DNA from: a virus
Lineage: Duplodnaviria > Heunggongvirae > Uroviricota > Caudoviricetes
DNA: 36,013 bases
Virus record (IMG/VR): IMGVR_UViG_2648501802_000001
Direction: 5' to 3' (one strand)
Of this stretch, positions 3,079-27,717 are shown one piece after another (position 1 is the first letter of the stretch; each line of letters opens with the position of its first letter). The position numbers were made by a program, and so were the translations under genes. Under the pieces are notes generated by a model. That model did not search any database. It saw only the letters and a list, made by a program, of their open reading frames with translations, and had not been told where the DNA came from.

Positions 3079-3252
3079 ATAATTAACCAGAGTTTTTAAC
3101 GCACTTAATCGTGCGGGGCTTCTTTTTGCCTGGAGAAAGTCATGCATACAGTTTCTGAAAATCAGTGCGGTAAATACGCATTACTGCTGCAACAGGCCTG
3201 AACCGAAGCACAGGCCGACGCTGCGACGCGCTTTTCTTCTCATCTTGACGCC

Positions 3253-3366
3253 ATGATTCGCCACATCACAAAGGCGGAGTTATCCCGCGTGGAGATAGTT
3301 GAGCTGCTCAGTCAGGAGTCGGAAAAATTTCACAATATCGGATTGTCTCGCGGGGAGGTGCTTTGA
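3253..3366 (+). CDS. Very small ORF (P2 orf80 position)
   Basis: About 37 codons read by eye ([19 protein letters not shown]...); not in the ORF track; coordinates approximate. Confidence 0.25.
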
Positions 3367-6537: not shown

Positions 6538-7458
6538 ATGGGCTTGGCGATGTATAACGATCCTTATAGTGACCCAAAAGCGTGGGAATCATATTTCAAA
6601 AATATTGTTTGGCTACATTATAAGCCTGCTAACTGTTGTGACTTGCCAGATGAGCATGGAGGCGACTTTGGGCTGGAGTGTTACACTCTGAGTGGTCATG
6701 TTTTTCAGTGTTACTTGCCTGAGCAGTCGAGTGATATTGATAAGCTTTATAAAGCGCAACAAAAAAAGATTTATACTGATATAAAAAAGTTTTCTCAGGA
6801 TAACATTAAAGAATTAGAGGAGCTTTTTGGCACATTAAAAATTAGCCGCTGGATATTAGCTACACCATATAATAAATCGGCGAAATTAAGTCAATATTGC
6901 ACAAAAAAATCATTAAAAGTAAGAGAGTTAGGGATTTCTTACGTTGCTGATGATTTTCAAATAGTAGTGCAAACAGATCGAAATTATATAGAAGAAGCGT
7001 TCTTTCTTCGCAAAAATAACTATCAATTAAGCTTTAATATAAATGATGCGACGGCTGAGAATGCTGCTAACTTTATTAGTGAAAATACATCTTTTTTAGA
7101 TAAGCTAAATTTAAAATTACCTAAGATAAATGATGATGTATCTAGGCAGGGTTTATATAGAGAGTTTTTAATACAAAAATATCTTGATTATCAAAACTTG
7201 CTGGATGCTTTGAAGAGAGACTGGGTTGATATCTATGAAATTATCTATAACTGTGTTCAACATAGAGAACGTAATTTGGTAGGTCTCTTTCTTCTTACTT
7301 CATCAGATGCGAAACCATCAGATATAATGAAAGATGAAATCGCTTTGTTAAAGAAATGTATTGAAGAGGAAGTTAGTACGCTTAAACAGGCTGACTTGGA
7401 TAAGATAACATGGGGAGTTATTTCTGATTGGCTTATAAGATGCCCTTTAGATTTTTAG
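6538..7458 (+). CDS. Unknown 306-aa protein, first gene of hotspot operon (candidate effector, LmuA-like position)
   Basis: AT-rich ORF immediately after A; 1-nt gap to the next gene; no motif I can assign confidently. Confidence 0.7.
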   Translation: MGLAMYNDPYSDPKAWESYFKNIVWLHYKPANCCDLPDEHGGDFGLECYTLSGHVFQCYLPEQSSDIDKLYKAQQKKIYTDIKKFSQDNIKELEELFGTLKISRWILATPYNKSAKLSQYCTKKSLKVRELGISYVADDFQIVVQTDRNYIEEAFFLRKNNYQLSFNINDATAENAANFISENTSFLDKLNLKLPKINDDVSRQGLYREFLIQKYLDYQNLLDALKRDWVDIYEIIYNCVQHRERNLVGLFLLTSSDAKPSDIMKDEIALLKKCIEEEVSTLKQADLDKITWGVISDWLIRCPLDF

Positions 7459-7459
7459 A

Positions 7460-7936
7460 ATGGAAAAGCAAATGCATATAACGATAGATGAAATAATAGG
7501 AAGGCCGTTTACGTTTAATAAACGACCTGAACATTTGCCATGTGATATGAGACCATTGTGGCGTTGCAGTTTGTTGCTGATAATATTCCTTGTCACAGGG
7601 AGAGCTGGTTGCTGTTCTTTAAAAAAACTTCATTTAATTAATTGGATGTTAAAGTCAGAGAATAATGAAGCAATGTTTGAATTCTGGCTTTTAAACAAAG
7701 AAGGTTTAAAGCCTGAAGTAAGATTGGATCCAACTTTAGATAGAGCAATACAGCTATTATTAGCAGAGGATTTTATTTTGAGAAATGAACGAGCGTTCAA
7801 AATAAATGAAAAGGGGCTTAAGGTCGCTGAGAAATTGCTTTCTCTTGATGTGTTCAAAGAAGAAAGGTTGGTGCTAAATAAACATAAGGCTGGACTGTCC
7901 GAAACTAACATTAATAAAATATTTCAGGTGGGTTAA
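7460..7936 (+). CDS. Small 158-aa protein with winged-helix-like C-terminus (LmuC/kleisin-like position)
   Basis: Translationally coupled on both sides (1-nt gaps); AT-rich. Confidence 0.65.
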   Translation: MEKQMHITIDEIIGRPFTFNKRPEHLPCDMRPLWRCSLLLIIFLVTGRAGCCSLKKLHLINWMLKSENNEAMFEFWLLNKEGLKPEVRLDPTLDRAIQLLLAEDFILRNERAFKINEKGLKVAEKLLSLDVFKEERLVLNKHKAGLSETNINKIFQVG

Positions 7937-7937
7937 T

Positions 7938-9959
7938 ATGTCGTTGGAAATTATTTCATTGGAGTTAGTAGCAAATACTTCGGATGGGCGTTATGGTGTT
8001 AGTATACCTTTTTCAAATGGCTTGTTTTTATTAAGAGTTGAGAATTCTCATGGTAAATCAACTTGCATGAATGGGATTGCATATGCACTTGGGATGGAAA
8101 AGGCATTAGGTGTCGGTTCTGGAAAAATCCCATTCCCTCCATCTTTGACTAGAGCACTAACGACAAAAGATAATGTTGAAGTTAGTGTAATATCATCTTA
8201 TGTTTTGCTAAAAATAAAGAATCATAAGGGAATAGAAGCATCTTTGAAAAGGAATATTATCGGTCACGATAATAATAATGTTATTTATATAGATGAGAAG
8301 AATAATGTAAAAAGTAAGAGTGGTACTTATTTTTTACATAGAGAGGGCGATACTGAAAGGGAACGTGGTTTCTATAAGTGGTTAGCTGATTTTATAGGTT
8401 GGAGTTTGCCAAATGTTCCAAACCATAATGGGAAGGACACTATTCTTTATCCATCCGTACTTTTCCCTGCATGGTATGTTGAGCAAAAAAAAGGATGGTC
8501 GTCAATTATGGCGACTGTACCAACACAATTTGGAATTAAAGAGCCAAAGAAAAGAGCTCTAGAATTTTTAATGTCTCTTGATGTTAATGATAATATTTTA
8601 TTGCGTAGTTCGTTAAGAAATGAACTTGATATTATTTATCATGATTGGAAGTTAATTAAACACAATGCAGAAGTTATTGCTTCTAAATTGTCGTCAGTTG
8701 TCACAGGGATTCCTGAACAACCAGTGGCAAAATTTGATCATTATAAGATAGATTTGATTATTAAAAATGGTAGCGTCGTTAGATCTATTGTTGATGTTCG
8801 TAATGAACTGGAAAAAGAGTTGCAAGAAATTAAGTTTGACACTCTTGGTGAGCAAGAAGAACAAACTTTACAATTATCAGTGGTTAAGTTATTAGGTCAA
8901 AAAAATGATGAAATTAACTCTCTGGAATTAAAGATTAAAGAGATTTGTGAGCATAGAAGTTATATTCAATATCAAATTCAGGCGACCAAAAACAGATTGT
9001 ATAATCTGTTGGAAGATAAAAGGAAGTATGAAGATTTAAAGAAAATATCATCTTCGGATGCGTATAAGTCAACAGATTTAATGTCAAATATTTGTCCGAC
9101 TTGTGGTGCAAGTTATAATGATAATTTGCTAAGTTTTTCATCGCAAGAAAATCTGATGACATATGAAGATAGTTTGAACTTTATTAAAGAGCAAGTAAAA
9201 GCATTTGAGTTTGTTCTGTCGGATAGTGAAAAGCAATTAAAGCTTAAAGATGTTGAGAGGAGTGATTTAGAGGGGGAAATAGCCAAGATTAGAGTTGATA
9301 TTAATGCATTAAGGGAGTCAAAATATCCCTCAATGGTTGTTCAGGAGGAGTTTCTGAGACGTAAAATAAACATTGAGAATAAAATTAATGCCATTAACGA
9401 TGGCATTAAAAGTATATTGGACATTAGACTGGAGTTGGATTCATTACACCGTAGATATAAAAAGCTTATCGCGAAAAGAAAAGGGTTGCCAGATAATTTC
9501 TTGTCGCGTAATGATGCCGATAAGTTAAAATTTCTTAATAAAGAAGTCGTTGCACGATTAGAAAAATATAATTTTACAAGTTTTGATTCTAAACTTGTGT
9601 CAATATCAGAAGATAATTACTTACCTACTAGGGAAGGATATGATATAGGTTTTGACACATCAGCTAGTGATGGAATAAGAATCATTTGGGGTTATTTAAT
9701 AAGTTTATTTGTTGTTGGTTCTAAATTTCAAACAAATCACCCTGGATTGATTGTGTTTGATGAGCCTCGTCAACAAGAAGCAAATAAAGTAAGTTTTGCC
9801 GAGTTACTTAAAGATGCTGCAGAAACAACAAAAGGACAAGGGCAGATCATTTTTGCTACATCAGAAGATGAAAATGTCTTAAAAGAGGCATTAGAAGGGT
9901 ATGACTATACAATGATATCCTTTGATAAGAACAATGGGAAATTGTTGAGGAAATTATAA
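7938..9959 (+). CDS. SMC/Rad50-like ABC ATPase with coiled coil and CxxC zinc hook (LmuB-like)
   Basis: Walker A VENSHGKST (aa 35-42); long charged heptad-rich middle with CPTCG (aa 386-390); C-terminal Walker B GLIVFDEP. Confidence 0.8.
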   Translation: MSLEIISLELVANTSDGRYGVSIPFSNGLFLLRVENSHGKSTCMNGIAYALGMEKALGVGSGKIPFPPSLTRALTTKDNVEVSVISSYVLLKIKNHKGIEASLKRNIIGHDNNNVIYIDEKNNVKSKSGTYFLHREGDTERERGFYKWLADFIGWSLPNVPNHNGKDTILYPSVLFPAWYVEQKKGWSSIMATVPTQFGIKEPKKRALEFLMSLDVNDNILLRSSLRNELDIIYHDWKLIKHNAEVIASKLSSVVTGIPEQPVAKFDHYKIDLIIKNGSVVRSIVDVRNELEKELQEIKFDTLGEQEEQTLQLSVVKLLGQKNDEINSLELKIKEICEHRSYIQYQIQATKNRLYNLLEDKRKYEDLKKISSSDAYKSTDLMSNICPTCGASYNDNLLSFSSQENLMTYEDSLNFIKEQVKAFEFVLSDSEKQLKLKDVERSDLEGEIAKIRVDINALRESKYPSMVVQEEFLRRKINIENKINAINDGIKSILDIRLELDSLHRRYKKLIAKRKGLPDNFLSRNDADKLKFLNKEVVARLEKYNFTSFDSKLVSISEDNYLPTREGYDIGFDTSASDGIRIIWGYLISLFVVGSKFQTNHPGLIVFDEPRQQEANKVSFAELLKDAAETTKGQGQIIFATSEDENVLKEALEGYDYTMISFDKNNGKLLRKL

Positions 9960-13107: not shown

Positions 13108-13250
13108 GGCTACTGAGTCGCGCCCTGCGATTCGCTAAGGTGCTGTTGTGTCAGTGATAAGCCATCCGGGACTGATGGCGGAGGATGCGCATCGTCGGGA
13201 AACTGATGCCGACATGTGACTCCTCTAATCACTATTCAGGACTCCTGACA
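13108..13250. promoter_or_regulatory. Divergent late promoter region P/O
   Basis: Intergenic region between divergent P and O; contains CTGTTGTGTCA (13143-13153), which recurs upstream of V. Confidence 0.4.
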
Positions 13251-13865
13251 ATGGCAAAAAAAGTCTCAAAATTCTTTCGTATCGGCGTTGAGGGTGACAC
13301 CTGTGACGGGCGTGTCATCAGTGCGCAGGATATTCAGGAAATGGCTGAAACCTTTGACCCGCGTGTCTACGGTTGCCGCATTAACCTGGAACATCTGCGC
13401 GGCATCCTGCCTGACGGTATTTTTAAACGTTATGGCGATGTGGTCGAACTGAAGGCCGAAAAGATTGATGACGATTCGGCGCTGAAAGGCAAATGGGCGC
13501 TGTTTGCGAAAATCACCCCGACCGATGACCTTATCGCGATGAACAAGGCCGCGCAGAAGGTCTATACCTCAATGGAAATTCAGCCGAACTTTGCCAACAC
13601 CGGCAAATGTTATCTGGTGGGGCTGGCCGTCACCGATGACCCGGCAAGCCTCGGCACGGAATACCTGGAATTCTGCCGCACGGCAAAACACAACCCTCTG
13701 AACCGCTTCAAATTAAGCCCTGAAAACCTGATTTCAGTGGCAACGCCCGTTGAGCTGGAATTTGAAGACCTGCCTGAAACCGTGTTCACCGCCCTGACCG
13801 AAAAGGTGAAATCCATTTTTGGCCGCAAACAGGCCAGCGATGACGCCCTGATGACGAACTGCTGA
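13251..13865 (+). CDS. O: Capsid scaffolding protein/protease (shortened)
   Basis: MAKKVSKFFRIGVEGDTCDG... ending ...FGRKQASDDALMTNC; about 204 aa versus about 284 aa in P2 as I recall it. Confidence 0.8.
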   Translation: MAKKVSKFFRIGVEGDTCDGRVISAQDIQEMAETFDPRVYGCRINLEHLRGILPDGIFKRYGDVVELKAEKIDDDSALKGKWALFAKITPTDDLIAMNKAAQKVYTSMEIQPNFANTGKCYLVGLAVTDDPASLGTEYLEFCRTAKHNPLNRFKLSPENLISVATPVELEFEDLPETVFTALTEKVKSIFGRKQASDDALMTNC

Positions 13866-18337: not shown

Positions 18338-18767
18338 TGACGTCACGGTGCTGAAAACTAACCCCGATATGCTGCGGATATTCGTGGATAACGGGAGTAT
18401 TGCCTCCACGCTGGCGGAGTCGTTGTCATTCGAAAAGCGTTACACGCTCAATGTCATTGTGACCGACTTTACCGGTGATTTTGACCTGCTCATCGTGCCG
18501 GTGCTGGCGTGGCTGCGGGAAAATCAGCCCGACATCATGACCACCGACGAAGGCCAGAAAAAGGGCTTCACGTTTTATGCAGACATCAACAATGACAGCA
18601 GCTTTGATATCAGCATCAGCCTGATGCTGACCGAGCGCACGCTGGTCAGTGAGGTGGACGGCGCACTGCATGTGAAGAATATCCCGGAACCCACGCCGCC
18701 GGAGCCGGTCACCCGCCCGATGGAGCTTTATATCAATGGTGAACTGGTGAGCAAGTGGGATGAATGA
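18300..18767 (+). CDS. R: Tail completion protein R
   Basis: 155 aa, P2 gpR-like. Confidence 0.85.
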   Translation: MLKPDSLRRALTDDVTVLKTNPDMLRIFVDNGSIASTLAESLSFEKRYTLNVIVTDFTGDFDLLIVPVLAWLRENQPDIMTTDEGQKKGFTFYADINNDSSFDISISLMLTERTLVSEVDGALHVKNIPEPTPPEPVTRPMELYINGELVSKWDE

Positions 18768-19221
18768 GTTTAAGCGTTTTGAAGACCGGCTGACCGGACT
18801 GATTGAGTCGCTGTCACCGTCAGGGCGTCGTCGACTGGCGGTAGATATTGCGAAGAAGCTGCGCCAGCGCCAGCAGCAGCGAATTAAATTACAAAAAGCC
18901 CCGGATGGTACGCCGTATGTACCGAGAAAAAACCAACCAGTACGAAATAAGAAAGGCCGGATAAAGCGGGAAATGTTTATGAAATTACGCACTAACCGGT
19001 TTATGAAAGCAACCGGTAGCGAGAGTGCCGCGGTGGTGGAGTTTGCCAGCGGAGTGCAACGAATTGCGCGAGTGCATCAGTATGGTTTAAAAGATAGACC
19101 CAATCCCGACGTTAAACCTATTAAGTATGATGAACGTAAACTACTTGGTTTTTCACATAATGATATTGACTTTATAGAATCAACGATCATTAATTGTCTT
19201 CTGGAAAAATCCAGAGAATAG
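18760..19221 (+). CDS. S: Tail completion protein S (3' end AT-rich)
   Basis: 153 aa with P2 gpS-like N-terminus (MNEFKRFEDRLTGLIESLSPSGRRR); the last ~45 codons are AT-rich. Confidence 0.8.
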   Translation: MNEFKRFEDRLTGLIESLSPSGRRRLAVDIAKKLRQRQQQRIKLQKAPDGTPYVPRKNQPVRNKKGRIKREMFMKLRTNRFMKATGSESAAVVEFASGVQRIARVHQYGLKDRPNPDVKPIKYDERKLLGFSHNDIDFIESTIINCLLEKSRE

Positions 19222-19236
19222 GAAGGTAAAGTACAA

Positions 19237-19776
19237 GTGACATGTAAAAAGAATGAAGGTGATGTTGTAAAGAAAATTGAACTGGTGCTGAAAACAATCG
19301 CGCGGACGGATTCTTATTTAAATTCAGCCAATACTAAATCAACGATATTACTAAGCTTAGCTTCAGCTGTAATTGTTGCTATTATAGCAAATTTTGACAA
19401 AGTTATATGTCTGGTAGATGTGGATAGTGATAGGATTTTTCTCTCTCTTTTATTGATTGTAATAGTTGGGTTATTGGTGATCTCTTTGTTATTTTCTCTA
19501 AAAGGTGTTACTCCAAATATCTCTAAGAGTGATAAGGAGAATACTTTTTCATTTGTTGATATATCAAGTTATTATAGTAGTCTTGATTGCTATTCTAGTA
19601 GTTTTAAGTCAGTGAGTGATCTGGAGTTGTTGGAGCAGTTAATTGCATTGAATTATACTCTTTCCAGAGCATTAACTAGCAAATATGAGATGCAAATCAT
19701 AGCCATTGACTTTATAAAAATGGCTGTTTATGTGCTTTGTTTTTTAATATATGTGGTTGCTTTATCTAATTGGTGA
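19237..19776 (+). CDS. Small membrane protein with three predicted TM helices (candidate effector)
   Basis: 179 aa; GTG start with GGAAGG RBS; hydrophobic stretches ILLSLASAVIVAIIANF, IFLSLLLIVIVGLLVISLLFSL and IIAIDFIKMAVYVLCFLIYVVAL; very AT-rich. Confidence 0.7.
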   Translation: MTCKKNEGDVVKKIELVLKTIARTDSYLNSANTKSTILLSLASAVIVAIIANFDKVICLVDVDSDRIFLSLLLIVIVGLLVISLLFSLKGVTPNISKSDKENTFSFVDISSYYSSLDCYSSSFKSVSDLELLEQLIALNYTLSRALTSKYEMQIIAIDFIKMAVYVLCFLIYVVALSNW

Positions 19777-19786
19777 AGGTTTTTGT

Positions 19787-21139
19787 ATGTCCATAAAGAG
19801 TATTTATTTAGTATTAGATGAAAGGCTGGAAGAGATAATTTCAAAATCAAAATCGCAATCAGTCCATGATGCTATATTTGAATCAGTGGATAATACACAG
19901 TTGGCCACGGAGAGCTTAAGTAAATCTTCTGGTTTCGTAAGAAGTTCTATTTCATTGAAAAAAGATGTAGGTGGAGCTGATGTTCAAAGTTATCAGGTGA
20001 AAGATATTGTTAGAAATAAATTTGGCAAGCACGGTCCACTCATGACAAGTTTTGGATGTCATCCGGACTTTAATAAAATGGATGATGGTGAGGTGAGAAA
20101 TGGTTATTCCATTACCATGTTTATGGATATAATCGGCTCAACTAAACTTGGGGTTGTTTTTCCACCAGAAATAGTATTTAGAATCAAAAATGATATTATA
20201 AGATGTGCGATCGAAACAGTGAATGCATTTGATGGTCACGTCCATAGAATTATGGGTGATGCAGTAATGGCATTTTTCCGAAGTAATGACCGATATAAAA
20301 ACAATAAGATCGCAGACAGTGCAATTGATGCAATAAACTGTGCCGTTGTTTTGATTGAAATGTTCAAGGGGGTTGTTATACCTAAATTGAGTGATTTGGG
20401 AGTTGACGAAAACTTAGGAATAAGAATTGGTCTTGACTATGGCCCTCACGAGGAAGTGGTGTGGTCAAAATATGGCTATATGGAAAGTCATGAAGTGACT
20501 GCGACATCTTTTTTTGTTGATGTTGCGGCAAAACTTCAGCAAAAAGCTCCTAAAAACTCAATTATGATAGGTGCAAGTTTTGTAGAGTTATTAGGCCTTG
20601 ATGATGTTCAATTAAAACATAAAATTAACAGAAACAATGGCGTAGAACACAAGGAATTGTATTTAACCCCAAATTATAAAGATGCTTCAGGCAAACCAAT
20701 AAATTACAGACAATATGTATTTGATAACGAACGTTATTGTAATTTGCTGCCTATAAATGATGAGGGGGGTAAACTCATTGTAAAAGCAACGCTTAAGAAG
20801 AGTGAAAATGATGTGTCTGATGATGAGTATATTTGTTGTTCTCGAATGATAAAAAAGGGTATGGGTATCTCATTTAAAGGGTACTATTACTCACAAGAAC
20901 AGTACTCTAATCCCAGGTTCAAATTTCGTGTCGAAAATACAGGTCCTGATGCAGGTAATGTTGATAATAAGGGTAATCATGAGTCATATGAGGTAGCAAG
21001 GTACACTGGCGAGCGTTATTTTGCTAAGCATTGGGAAGATTGTCATTACAAAGGACTGCATTATATGTTTGTATCTTTTTGGAATGGGGATCAATTAATA
21101 GAAAGGGAGAGGTGTTTTTCAGTTTTTATTAACGATTAA
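19787..21139 (+). CDS. Class III nucleotidyl cyclase-like protein with uncharacterised N- and C-terminal extensions
   Basis: Motifs FMDIIGST (aa ~112) and HRIMGDAVMAFF (aa ~154), with the two Asp residues about 44 residues apart; ATG 19787 with GGTGAAGG RBS (the track ORF starts at 19751); AT-rich. Confidence 0.75.
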   Translation: MSIKSIYLVLDERLEEIISKSKSQSVHDAIFESVDNTQLATESLSKSSGFVRSSISLKKDVGGADVQSYQVKDIVRNKFGKHGPLMTSFGCHPDFNKMDDGEVRNGYSITMFMDIIGSTKLGVVFPPEIVFRIKNDIIRCAIETVNAFDGHVHRIMGDAVMAFFRSNDRYKNNKIADSAIDAINCAVVLIEMFKGVVIPKLSDLGVDENLGIRIGLDYGPHEEVVWSKYGYMESHEVTATSFFVDVAAKLQQKAPKNSIMIGASFVELLGLDDVQLKHKINRNNGVEHKELYLTPNYKDASGKPINYRQYVFDNERYCNLLPINDEGGKLIVKATLKKSENDVSDDEYICCSRMIKKGMGISFKGYYYSQEQYSNPRFKFRVENTGPDAGNVDNKGNHESYEVARYTGERYFAKHWEDCHYKGLHYMFVSFWNGDQLIERERCFSVFIND

Positions 21140-21239
21140 ATTGTGATTTATTTGAGGGGGGGAATGTAGTCTGTTGTATCATACCTCACCAAAGCATCAA
21201 AATTTGCCGCTAGTGTAAACTAGCGGCATCCTTCCCGTT
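21140..21239 (+). promoter_or_regulatory. Putative late promoter region upstream of V
   Basis: CTGTTGTATCA (21171-21181) resembles the element upstream of O; a GCCGCTAG...CTAGCGGC hairpin just before the V start. Confidence 0.35.
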
Positions 21240-21875
21240 ATGAACACTCTCGCAAATATTCAGGAACTCGCGCGCGCACTGCGCAACATGATTCGCACCG
21301 GCATTATCATCGAAACCGACCTTAACGCCGGTCGCTGCCGTGTGCAGACCGGCGGCATGTGCACCGACTGGCTTCAGTGGCTGACCTGTCGTGCCGGGCG
21401 TTCGCGCACATGGTGGGCACCTTCCGTGGGGGAGCAGGTGCTGATTCTGGCCGTGGGCGGTGAACTTGACACGGCGTTTGTTCTGCCGGGGATTTATTCC
21501 GGCGATAACCCCGCGCCGTCTGCGTCGGCGGATGCCCTGCATATCCGTTTCCCTGACGGGGCGGTGATTGAGTATGAACCCGAAACCAGTGCACTCACGG
21601 TAAGCGGAATTAAAACGGCCAGCGTGACGGCTTCTGATTCTGTTACTGCCACGGTGCCGGTGGTCACGGTGAAAGCATCAACCCGCGTCACCCTGGACAC
21701 ACCGGAGGTGGTCTGCACCAACAGGCTGATTACCGGCACGCTGGAAGTGCAGAAGGGCGGGACGATGCGCGGCAACATTGAACACACCGGCGGTGAACTC
21801 TCATCAAACGGTAAGGTACTGCATACCCATAAACACCCCGGCGACAGCGGCGGCACAACCGGGAGTCCTCTATGA
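21240..21875 (+). CDS. V: Baseplate spike protein
   Basis: 211 aa, P2 gpV-like. Confidence 0.9.
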   Translation: MNTLANIQELARALRNMIRTGIIIETDLNAGRCRVQTGGMCTDWLQWLTCRAGRSRTWWAPSVGEQVLILAVGGELDTAFVLPGIYSGDNPAPSASADALHIRFPDGAVIEYEPETSALTVSGIKTASVTASDSVTATVPVVTVKASTRVTLDTPEVVCTNRLITGTLEVQKGGTMRGNIEHTGGELSSNGKVLHTHKHPGDSGGTTGSPL

Positions 21876-23736: not shown

Positions 23737-24932
23737 CAGTGAAATACTACGCCATTCTGACTAATCAGGGCGCAGCACGGCTGGCTAACGCGACGATGCT
23801 CGGCAGTAAGCTGAATCTGACGCAAATGGCCGTTGGTGATGCGAATGGTGTCTTGCCGACACCAGACCCGGCACAGACAAAACTGATTAACCAGAAACGC
23901 ATCGCGCCGCTGAATCTTCTGAGTGTTGACCCGAACAACCAGAGCCAGATTATTGCGGAGCAAATCATCCCTGAGAACGAGGGCGGATTCTGGATCCGTG
24001 AGATTGGGCTTTATGATGATGAAGGCGTACTCATTGCGGTGGCGAACTGCCCGGAAACGTACAAACCGCAGTTGCAGGAAGGCAGTGGTCGTACCCAGAC
24101 TATCCGCATGATTCTGGTTGTCACGAATACCGAAGCTATCACGCTGAAAATCGACCCGTCGGTGGTACTGGCGACCCGTAAATACGTGGATGATGAAGTC
24201 CTGGAATTAAAGCTGTATGTGGATGACCAGATGAGAAACCACATTGCCGCACAGGATCCTCATACCCAGTATGCGCAGAAACATAATCCGACATTTACCG
24301 GAGAACCAAAAGCGCCGACGCCTGCCGCAGGAAATAACACCACGCGGATTGCGACCACTGAGTTTGTTCAGGCCGCTATTACCGCTCTGATTAACGGTGC
24401 GCCAGCCACACTGGACACACTGAAAGAAATTGCCGCGGCCATTAACAATGACCCGAAATTCAGCACCACCATTAACAATGCGCTGTCAGGTAAGCAGCCA
24501 CTGGATGAGACGCTGACTCATTTGAGTGGAAAGGATGTAGCTGGTCTTCTCGCATACCTTGGTTTGAGAGAAGCGGCAAAACGGGATGTGGGGACAGGGG
24601 AAAATCAGATACCGGACATGGCCTCTTTTGCCAGTGGTGATGGATGGATGAAATTACCCAACGGGAAAATCCTGCAATATGGTCGTGGTGCGGTTACGCC
24701 GACATTATCGACGCAAACAATGAGAATTACATTCAGCATCCCTTTCCCCAAAAAAGCGGACTGCGCCATGCTTACTCATTCTGGTGATGGCGGTGCGCCT
24801 TTAGGCGCTGGGCGAGGGTTCGTGATGACTGCAGAAGGCCCAACGTTAACCGGCTTTAATTCTGCTTACAGAACGTCATCAACCAGCGACACGGTATCGA
24901 TGAATTACAGTTGGTGGGCTGTTGGTGAGTAA
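23733..24932 (+). CDS. H: Tail fibre protein with exchangeable C-terminus
   Basis: 399 aa with conserved P2 gpH N-terminus (MTVKYYAILTNQGAARLANA...); an inversion crossover site lies inside the gene at about 24556. Confidence 0.85.
   Translation: MTVKYYAILTNQGAARLANATMLGSKLNLTQMAVGDANGVLPTPDPAQTKLINQKRIAPLNLLSVDPNNQSQIIAEQIIPENEGGFWIREIGLYDDEGVLIAVANCPETYKPQLQEGSGRTQTIRMILVVTNTEAITLKIDPSVVLATRKYVDDEVLELKLYVDDQMRNHIAAQDPHTQYAQKHNPTFTGEPKAPTPAAGNNTTRIATTEFVQAAITALINGAPATLDTLKEIAAAINNDPKFSTTINNALSGKQPLDETLTHLSGKDVAGLLAYLGLREAAKRDVGTGENQIPDMASFASGDGWMKLPNGKILQYGRGAVTPTLSTQTMRITFSIPFPKKADCAMLTHSGDGGAPLGAGRGFVMTAEGPTLTGFNSAYRTSSTSDTVSMNYSWWAVGE
24556..24572. repeat. Left inversion crossover site (hix/gix-like)
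   Basis: ACCTTGGTTTGAGAGAA; its inverted partner is at 26456-26472 with 2 mismatches; core resembles the hix ACCTTGGTTT. Confidence 0.6.
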
Positions 24933-24943
24933 TTTTATTCAGG

Positions 24944-25396
24944 GTGATTTATATGAACGAATATGTTTATAGCGCAAGGCATAATGCTTTTTTCCCTGTG
25001 GATATGATTGATAAATATAAATCAGAGGGATGGGATTTATCAGACGCTAAGGAAGTAAATCAAAATATTATCAGTGAGTTTATGGCTGAACCGCCACAAG
25101 GAAAAATCCGTATTGCCGGAGATGATGGGCTGCCTGCGTGGGCAGATATTCCTCCACCCACGCATGAAGAGCTTATTGAAATTACTGAATCAGAAAGACA
25201 GCTACTAATTAACCAGGCCAACGAATACATGAACAGTAAGCAATGGCCCGGTAAAGCCGCTATTGGTCGTCTGAAAGGTGAGGAACTGGCGCAATATAAT
25301 TTGTGGCTGGATTATCTGGATGCACTGGAGCTGGTTGATACCTCCAGTGCACCAGATATTGAATGGCCTACGCCTCCGGCAGTTCAGGCCAGATGA
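24944..25396 (+). CDS. Tail fibre assembly chaperone (gpG/Tfa-like)
   Basis: 150 aa immediately after H; conserved Tfa-type C-terminus. Confidence 0.75.
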   Translation: MIYMNEYVYSARHNAFFPVDMIDKYKSEGWDLSDAKEVNQNIISEFMAEPPQGKIRIAGDDGLPAWADIPPPTHEELIEITESERQLLINQANEYMNSKQWPGKAAIGRLKGEELAQYNLWLDYLDALELVDTSSAPDIEWPTPPAVQAR

Positions 25397-25970
25397 CATC
25401 CGGCGCGGTGCTGGTATCTGTTGCCGTCACCGCGTCAATGTAATCCAGCACAGCGTTAAGCCGGGTTGTTTCTGCCTGCGTCAGTTTACGTCCGGCCTGC
25501 AATTTCAGTTGAATCAGACTGATGGAAGCCATTGCAGTATCAATCAGCGACTGGCGCTGTGCTTCTGCTGCATCTACTGCGGCGCTATGCTGTGCCTCGG
25601 TATCCGTCACCCATTTCTCACCATCCCATTTATCATATGGCGTTAATGGGGCGATAGTGGTTGTATTTTCAGGGTAATCACCCGGAGCGGTGATTTCTTT
25701 TGATTCTCCTGTTTCGGTGCTATAGACCGTTTCACCGCGATGGTCTGGCACATATTCCCATGAGTTAAAATCTGCAGAACGGCAGATTGCATAACCAGCC
25801 TTATGTGTGCCAGGGGCATCTAAACAGGAACATGCCGGAATGCCGACACCAACGGCAAGATATTCATTTGAAGTGGAAATATATTCCCGTGTTTCACCAT
25901 CATAGTTATAAACGGTAACATCCCCTGCCTTTGTTGCAATGAGCTCACTATTTAATATTGCTTTATGCAT
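25368..25970 (-). CDS. Alternative tail fibre assembly chaperone (Tfa') in the invertible segment
   Basis: 200 aa, convergent with the forward Tfa; start overlaps the stop of the alternative fibre segment (ATGA). Confidence 0.7.
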   Translation of the reverse strand: MHKAILNSELIATKAGDVTVYNYDGETREYISTSNEYLAVGVGIPACSCLDAPGTHKAGYAICRSADFNSWEYVPDHRGETVYSTETGESKEITAPGDYPENTTTIAPLTPYDKWDGEKWVTDTEAQHSAAVDAAEAQRQSLIDTAMASISLIQLKLQAGRKLTQAETTRLNAVLDYIDAVTATDTSTAPDVIWPELPEA

Positions 25971-26464
25971 CAGGCTGCCCTCACGATATAGTTAAATGCA
26001 ATATTACGCGGACGCGTTTCTGAGGCTGCGGCACCTAAACCAGCCACTGATTGTTTATATGTTTTAAAGGTTCCATAATCCGGTGCTGGTAATCCAGCAT
26101 CGTTTGTGTTTCCTCTTTTGATAATGTCAGTGCCACTATTTACCCAGCTTTCATCAAAATAGAAATTAATCGTTGCATCAGTCACAATCGTGGATCTTGA
26201 CGGTAATCCATGAGCATGATCCTCCGTTGCATACCCCTGAATACTTAAAATAGAGCGACCTGTATCAATCCCCCGCCCGTCATCCCAGCCACGAATAAAC
26301 TCACCACGTAAATCAGGCAATTTATTTGTCGGGTAAGCCTTTGCCAGTTCCGGGTATTCTTCAGCCGAAAAAGCAGCCCCGTTGCATTTCAGCCAGCCTG
26401 TTGGCGGCGTAGCTGAAGGCCAAGGAACTGGTATGCCAACAGGCAACGCAGAACCTTCTCCCAA
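25970..26464 (-). CDS. Promoterless alternative tail fibre C-terminal segment (H')
   Basis: Fibre-tip-like sequence on the minus strand with no ATG start (the track M is a TTG); reading frame stays open up to the right crossover site. Confidence 0.6.
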   Translation of the reverse strand: MGEGSALPVGIPVPWPSATPPTGWLKCNGAAFSAEEYPELAKAYPTNKLPDLRGEFIRGWDDGRGIDTGRSILSIQGYATEDHAHGLPSRSTIVTDATINFYFDESWVNSGTDIIKRGNTNDAGLPAPDYGTFKTYKQSVAGLGAAASETRPRNIAFNYIVRAA

Positions 26465-26472
26465 ACCAACGT
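26456..26472. repeat. Right inversion crossover site (hix/gix-like)
   Basis: TTCTCCCAAACCAACGT, inverted repeat of 24556-24572. Confidence 0.6.
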
Positions 26473-27123: not shown

Positions 27124-27717
27124 ATGCGTATAGGTTATGTTCGTGTATCAACAAATGACCAGAACACGGAATTGCAGCGTAACGCGCTCGAGTGCGCAGG
27201 ATGTGAGCTGATTTTTGAGGATAAAATCAGCGGCACGAAGTCCGACCGACCGGGGCTGAAAAAACTGCTCAGAACATTATCAGCAGGTGACACTCTGGTA
27301 GTCTGGAAGCTGGACAGGCTGGGGCGTAGTATGCGGCATCTGGTCATTCTGGTTGAGGAACTGCGCGAACGCGGCATTAATTTTCGCAGCCTGACAGATG
27401 CTATTGATACCAGCACGCCGATGGGGCGTTTTTTCTTTCATGTGATGGGTGCCCTGGCTGAAATGGAACGAGAACTCATTGTCGAACGGACTCGGGCCGG
27501 GCTGGAAGCGGCCAGAGCCAAAGGTCGTATTGGTGGCAGACGTCCTAAACTCACCACGAGTGAGTGGGAGCAGGTCGGGCGTTTGCTGGCTGCAGGGGAG
27601 TCACGTCAACGCGTGGCACTGATTTTTGATATTGGCCTGTCCACGCTCTATAAAAAATTTCCCTCATCAGCGATAAAGAATAAATTGTGTCATCCCTTAG
27701 CCAACCGGGACAAATAG
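27124..27717 (+). CDS. Serine DNA invertase (Hin/Gin/Pin/Cin family)
   Basis: MRIGYVRVSTNDQ... with catalytic Ser region; LVVWKLDRLGRS; C-terminal HTH. Confidence 0.9.
   Translation: MRIGYVRVSTNDQNTELQRNALECAGCELIFEDKISGTKSDRPGLKKLLRTLSAGDTLVVWKLDRLGRSMRHLVILVEELRERGINFRSLTDAIDTSTPMGRFFFHVMGALAEMERELIVERTRAGLEAARAKGRIGGRRPKLTTSEWEQVGRLLAAGESRQRVALIFDIGLSTLYKKFPSSAIKNKLCHPLANRDK

Follow-up and report, generated by a model that had tools for sequence, protein, structure and literature searches.

The mechanism of Pycsar defence is described in PMC11224242, PMC12489823 and PMC13069673, and the E. coli representative is the EcPycC-EcPycTM pair (Tal et al. 2021, Cell 184:5728, as relayed in PMC11224242, PMC9117128 and PMC12489823). 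Among the pyrimidine cyclases, clade E is the cCMP-making clade (PMC11224242), and clades C and E employ transmembrane effectors (PMC13069673). The CTP-specificity residues of EaPycC, the clade E enzyme of Elizabethkingia anophelis (PDB 8JSF), are F100, R142 and Q144, and the Q144A substitution abolishes its cCMP synthesis (PMC11224242). A cNMP-binding domain is a feature of PycTIR effectors, and PycTM is described simply as a transmembrane receptor (PMC11224242). The arrangement in which pycTM is followed by pycC has been called 'a typical Pycsar system' (PMC13069673).

In P2-like phages, the accessible portions of two papers on defence hotspots (PMC9122126; 10.1101/2024.10.15.618418) place these loci at gpA-gpQ (old/tin), Z/fun and tail-CI; within those portions, S-V is not treated as a hotspot and Pycsar is mentioned in passing. 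In phage P2 itself, the interval between S and V holds orf30, a nonessential minus-strand gene flanked by the O-operon terminator and the activator site of pV (AF063097). The same slot contains a different, 741-bp ORF in phage R18C (PMC6823313) and is empty in pro483 (66 bp).

The stretch of DNA analysed here in its entirety (36,013 nucleotides, hereafter the window) is an E. coli P2-like prophage sited between yegR and yegQ. It is 99.99% identical to the prophage at yegR/yegQ of E. coli ST2747, the two being one inverted segment apart (blastn, CP007394). S (18760-19221) and V (21240-21875) are separated by two plus-strand ORFs, 19237-19776 and 19751-21139, in agreement with the two-gene S-V cassette of the initial annotation. 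Its AT-richness is equally evident, with a GC content of 0.343 in the cassette against 0.566 in the left flank and 0.526 in the right one. The features of the cassette are as follows.

19237..19776, plus strand: pycTM, GTG start, 179 aa, identified from PADLOC, Pfam, the RefSeq name, hydropathy and an AlphaFold2 model.
19787..21139, plus strand: pycC, 450 aa from the likely start; the longer ORF from 19751 encodes 462 aa.
20093..20635, plus strand: class III nucleotidyl cyclase core of PycC, about aa 103-283, delimited from Pfam Guanylate_cyc, the EaPycC alignment and 36 homologues.
20774..21130, plus strand: AGS-C immunoglobulin-like C-terminal domain of PycC, aa 330-448.

The cassette is a standard two-gene Pycsar locus, whose family is known and annotated and whose slot is known to vary. 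It is placed in Pycsar by the families of its two proteins, its intact catalytic residues, the conservation of both the pairing and the order of the genes, and its location. We consider it highly probable that the pair constitutes a canonical Pycsar system for abortive infection, with the S-V (orf30) slot as its cargo site. These exact proteins are already named in RefSeq, as 'adenylate/guanylate cyclase domain-containing protein' (WP_025210649.1) and 'Pycsar system effector family protein' (WP_025210650.1).

The cyclase had been described as a 462-aa protein, which is the correct length of the ORF 19751-21139; its true start is most probably the ATG at 19787, giving 450 aa, because this codon lies past the pycTM stop, has GGTGAAGG 8-15 nt upstream, is the RefSeq choice, and agrees with the length of the homologues (about 450 aa) and with PHROG family phrog_19370, which matches over 1-450 of 450 positions. 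PADLOC PycC model PDLC00764 covers the protein at E=1.6e-128 (model positions 12-448 of 449), Pfam Guanylate_cyc scores 25.3-25.4 bits (cut-off 21.9), and the AlphaFold2 model superposes on cyclases, so that the proposed cyclase similarity stands. Profile searches succeeded for both cassette proteins, and Foldseek retrieved cyclases for PycC; the PycTM model had no significant Foldseek match in the PDB (best E=0.27). NCBIfam returned no match for either protein. The motifs FMDIIGST and RIMGDAVMAFF are present as reported, with the aspartates D114 and D158 (450-aa numbering) 44 residues apart. Aligned with EaPycC, these two fall on its metal-binding residues D102 and D146, and they are invariant in the 36 homologues.

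EaPycC is the best match in both sequence and structure, over residues of about 11-310, and shares with PycC the N-terminal helix, the additional beta elements that follow the core, the 44-residue spacing of the aspartates and the equivalents of F100 and R142, at an identity of 25-27%. The N-terminal part of PycC aligns with EaPycC from residue 3. The 342-aa chain of EaPycC aligns only with profile positions 11-309, whereas region 338-445 of the protein studied here matches the solved AGS-C domain of EcPycC (9ARD) instead, at about 19% identity; as far as the available accounts of EcPycC-EcPycTM allow a comparison, the cassette encodes a different orthologue. Pfam AGS_C scores 26.4 bits, just below its cut-off of 26.7, and every one of the 36 homologues in the alignment has hits to Guanylate_cyc and AGS_C alike. 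The terminal regions, previously given as of unknown function, are thus an EaPycC-like N-terminal part and an AGS-C immunoglobulin-like domain, the latter a candidate sensor or specificity module.

The AGS-C domain and the small transmembrane effector are reminiscent of type I CBASS, in which CD-NTase-AGS-C proteins are paired with 2TM effectors. PADLOC models of the CBASS '2TM' effector match PycTM (E=1e-20), and the CBASS oligonucleotide-cyclase models match weakly (E=1e-4 to 3e-3) and in the AGS-C region only (residues 339-454). CBASS membership is ruled out, as there is no CD-NTase: the catalytic domain is that of a class III mononucleotide cyclase, whereas CBASS enzymes have the CD-NTase (SMODS) fold.

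PycC groups with the pyrimidine cyclase clades, apart from housekeeping adenylate and guanylate cyclases, and its similarity to the clade E cytidylate cyclase is far higher than that to the clade B and D uridylate cyclases. The use of a transmembrane effector is expected of clade E, and the partner here is PycTM by PADLOC. Two of the three EaPycC specificity residues, F100 and R142, have conserved equivalents, F112 and R154, both invariant in the 36 homologues. The third, Q144, corresponds to M156, invariant in the same 36 homologues from Enterobacteria, Pseudomonas, Vibrio and Aeromonas, so that the motif HRLQGD of EaPycC reads HRIMGD here. Because of this invariant methionine at the Q144 position, cCMP is not secure as the product. 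Pycsar signalling through another nucleotide, such as cUMP or an unusual cNMP, draws on this substitution and on the loss of cCMP synthesis in EaPycC Q144A (PMC11224242). We nevertheless regard it as unlikely, given the conserved F100 and R142 equivalents, the proximity to a clade that makes cCMP and works with transmembrane effectors (PMC13069673, PMC11224242), and the synthesis of cCMP by EcPycC, which, in the available descriptions, also bears AGS-C. The AGS-C-bearing subfamily with methionine in place of Q144 may produce some other nucleotide or recognise CTP in its own way.

For the effector, PADLOC PycTM model PDLC02364 matches residues 11-174 on model positions 3-151 of 160 (E=8.5e-29), a second PycTM model, PDLC02365, gives E=2.1e-27, and Pfam PF18967 (PycTM / DUF5706) scores 28.0 bits, above its cut-off of 27.2. 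The three hydrophobic helices noted earlier in the 179-aa partner are confirmed, hydropathy placing them at about 35-53, 66-88 and 152-179 and the AlphaFold model consisting of three long helices (pLDDT 87). No cNMP-binding Pfam domain was found in PycTM, even at E<=1. The earlier proposal that the partner is too small for such a domain and must be gated differently does not survive comparison with the family, since it is PycTIR that has the cNMP-binding domain. PADLOC's models of PycTM span 154-165 positions and that of Pfam 107, and the 31 homologues of PycTM measure 176-205 aa with PF18967, save one partial sequence of 106 aa; small size is therefore the norm of the PycTM family. The PADLOC and Pfam matches and the homologue lengths rule out an effector gated unlike canonical PycTM owing to its size.

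Directly before the first hydrophobic helix of PycTM lies the conserved segment RTDSYLNSANTKST (R23 to T36); other conserved soluble segments are NTFSFVD after helix 2 and LNxxLSxALxxKY before helix 3. From their conservation, all three are candidate ligand-sensing surfaces, and the invariant RTDSYLNSANTKST next to helix 1 could be the nucleotide-sensing site of PycTM effectors that have no cNMP-binding domain. Ligand binding and pore formation by this small protein are putative, Foldseek having retrieved no solved structural relative.

By analogy with described systems, the cassette would act as follows. The lysogen would express PycTM and PycC at a low level, and infection by another phage would activate PycC, presumably a homodimeric enzyme of the class III, cytidylate (clade E) type, whose immunoglobulin-like AGS-C domain probably helps to sense or gate the response. 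PycC would then cyclise a pyrimidine NTP, with CTP as the most likely substrate and 3',5'-cCMP as the product, and the nucleotide would activate the 179-aa PycTM, leading to damage of the inner membrane. The infected cell would arrest or die before the invader completes its cycle, and the clonal population together with the resident prophage would be protected. What nucleotide is made, what triggers the system, and that membrane damage and defence result are all extrapolated from published homologues. The suggestion of a cyclase fold without a signalling role found no support.

The gene order, with the membrane protein first, had been taken as unusual, but the same order occurs in every relative examined, namely Klebsiella P2-like prophages, a Pectobacterium chromosome and a Vibrio integrative island. 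Together with the description of this order as typical (PMC13069673), the relatives exclude it as an oddity. The pairing of pycTM with pycC is kept in four independent genomic contexts, and the relatives' pairs are AT-rich throughout (GC 0.31-0.35). The Klebsiella prophages carry the homologous pair in the same S-V slot, with PycC 62% identical. In Pectobacterium, the pair adjoins ssb and uvrA, outside any phage, and the Vibrio pair is likewise non-phage, in an integrase island. Directly upstream of the pair in this Vibrio parahaemolyticus island, a co-oriented gene for a 449-aa protein with no Pfam hit (L007 4091-5440) sits next to the integrase; it may belong to the system as a third component or be cargo in its own right. 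A further match, in the unannotated genome of Enterococcus phage Efs 1-1-1 (OR846597.1, 48286-48936, minus strand; tblastn), is 37% identical to the catalytic core of PycC (residues 90-318, E=2e-31), which suggests a PycC-like cyclase in a Gram-positive phage.

The location also falls within the known range. The S-V slot is known to vary, and Pycsar is a rare cargo there. The statement that P2 has no genes between S and V is incorrect in view of orf30, and the location is not non-classical, since orf30 occupies it in P2 and other content does in other phages. In an even-step sample of 1627 E. coli records holding R-S-V-W, the slot was empty in about two thirds and contained cargo annotated as 'hypothetical protein', adding about 0.8-1.2 kb, in about one third. 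The cassette thus lies in the S-V position, where content varies among collinear P2-like genomes, and has an atypical GC content (0.34 against about 0.55). As in P2, the slot is bounded by gene S, which ends the O operon, and by the pV promoter, and is AT-rich, nonessential and variable in content; the difference is that P2 has a single minus-strand gene, orf30, and the window a recognised plus-strand defence system. The cassette does not interrupt the late tail operon, as had been supposed: it sits at the O/V operon boundary, where P2 has orf30, and this position rules out such an interruption.

In P2-like phages, the S-V (orf30) slot may serve as a so far under-described site for defence cargo. 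Taken jointly with a different nucleotide or CTP reading in the methionine subfamily and with RTDSYLNSANTKST as the nucleotide sensor, this forms a speculative proposal that we rate as improbable as a whole.

Overall, the label of an atypical Pycsar-like candidate is right in its second half, PADLOC and Pfam matching both proteins, and the atypical part lapses along with its grounds of size, gene order and location.

The boundaries of the cargo and the signals around it are listed below.

18838..19221, plus strand: divergent, AT-richer 3' five-sixths of the tail-completion gene S (18760-19221), the left recombination junction.
19152..19180, plus strand: putative sigma-70 promoter, TTCACA-17-TAGAAT, within the 3' end of S and 57 nt ahead of pycTM; 10 of 12 consensus positions match.
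21175..21192, plus strand: probable Ogr-type late-activator site of the V-operon promoter, TGT-N12-CAA, kept 3' of the cargo.
21206..21227, no strand assigned: hairpin GCCGCTAG-TGTAAA-CTAGCGGC just upstream of V, at the right homology boundary (21204).

Gene S is chimeric. Its DNA is 93-100% identical to P2 and pro483 over the first ~80 nt and 43-68% thereafter; homology to these phages breaks near 18838, inside S, and resumes at 21204. Accordingly, residues 1-26 of the S protein are identical to P2 S, and the rest is 47% identical to P2 S and 68% to the S protein of the Klebsiella Pycsar-bearing prophage. The co-diverged 3' part of S, pycTM and pycC are common to the E. coli and Klebsiella versions. 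The chimeric S and the similarity to Klebsiella suggest that the three have been exchanged as a unit among P2-like phages, and, judging from these alignments, homologous recombination within S seems to move this module, which also seems to have long resided in the S-V slot.

At the right end, 21175..21192 aligns, with the same half-sites, with the P2 site annotated as 'activator binding site; activation of pV promoter' (AF063097 10239-10266), and it presumably acts as the activator site of the V promoter. The hairpin that follows has counterparts in the same place in pro483 (GCCGCCGG-N7-CCGGCGGC, L009 2244-2279) and in the Klebsiella prophage (GCCGACAGA-N4-TCTGGCGGC, L004, about 7443-7464), so that its structure, not its sequence, is kept among P2-like phages via paired changes. 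The hairpin reads as a minus-strand terminator because an A/T run precedes it. It may be an O-operon terminator, a part of pV, or another element.

Expression of the cassette in the lysogen is assumed, with the putative promoter at 19152-19180 as a possible source. The promoter scan carries no real evidential weight on expression, since its 12 sites compare with 9.5 +/- 3.1 in shuffled sequence, with no excess. No terminator-like site was detected between S and pycTM, unlike in P2, which has one there. Readthrough in the late O-operon transcript, the position directly downstream of the lysis and tail-completion genes, and a partner that, like holins, is a small membrane protein would fit a role of the pair in the lytic cycle of the prophage itself, for example auxiliary lysis or lysis timing. 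We consider such a role very improbable, because the same pair is found outside phages (by ssb and uvrA in Pectobacterium and in the Vibrio integrase island), most E. coli P2-like prophages function without cargo here, and both families were defined from defence systems (PADLOC).

The cassette occurs at >=99.6% identity in 6 of 5426 complete E. coli genomes, the six coming from different hosts, and variants of its protein clusters occur in hundreds of contigs. In a third E. coli ST2747 genome (NZ_CP007392.1), two places match the cassette, and truncated versions of PycC (353 aa) and PycTM (99 aa) are encoded in an ST2747 genome, which suggests that NZ_CP007392.1 holds a second, degraded copy.

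The gpO of P2, the capsid scaffold, is about 284 aa long. The gpO ORF of the window (13185-13865, plus strand) has just 226 aa, and RefSeq flags its C-terminus as missing in ST2747. A DUF2732 gene is flagged there as a pseudogene (L002 3922-4146, corresponding to window 3142-3366). With these flags and the shortened gpO, the prophage may be defective; the cassette ORFs are unaffected. An inactive remnant in a decaying prophage would be in line with the truncated scaffold and the pseudogene in the 99.99% identical ST2747 prophage, and with the shortened second copy in one ST2747 genome. Yet both ORFs in the window are full length and contain every family-invariant residue, and the conservation across the six genomes and the abundance of the contigs point the same way; we therefore give a remnant a very small chance, and an intact Pycsar system remains our reading.

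Elsewhere in the window, the gpA-gpQ (old/tin) hotspot (6538-9959, plus strand) contains a trio of genes recognised by PADLOC as a Lamassu-type system, all of them 'hypothetical protein' in RefSeq.

6538-7458, plus strand: LmuA, PADLOC E=1e-29.
7460-7936, plus strand: LmuC, PADLOC E=2.5e-23.
7938-9959, plus strand: LmuB, PADLOC E=1e-98.

In its anti-phage cargo and in the Lamassu-type operon at gpA-gpQ, the prophage resembles the P2-like defence hotspots as presented in the accessible parts of PMC9122126 and 10.1101/2024.10.15.618418. The segment inverted relative to ST2747 CP007394 (blastn) spans 1.9 kb (24559-26472, plus strand) and comprises the C-terminus of the tail fibre and tail-fibre assembly genes. 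A serine invertase gene (27124-27717; Resolvase and HTH_7, E=4e-52) adjoins it, and the segment looks like an active host-range switch in the Z/fun slot.

The main value of these results is a correction: the cassette is to be filed under standard Pycsar and represents no new variant. In terms of natural history, a single P2-like prophage carries two sets of defence genes, Pycsar at the orf30 position and Lamassu-type genes at old/tin. The locus also touches two questions that concern the whole family, namely how PycTM effectors devoid of a cNMP-binding domain sense cCMP, and what is recognised by the AGS-C domain.
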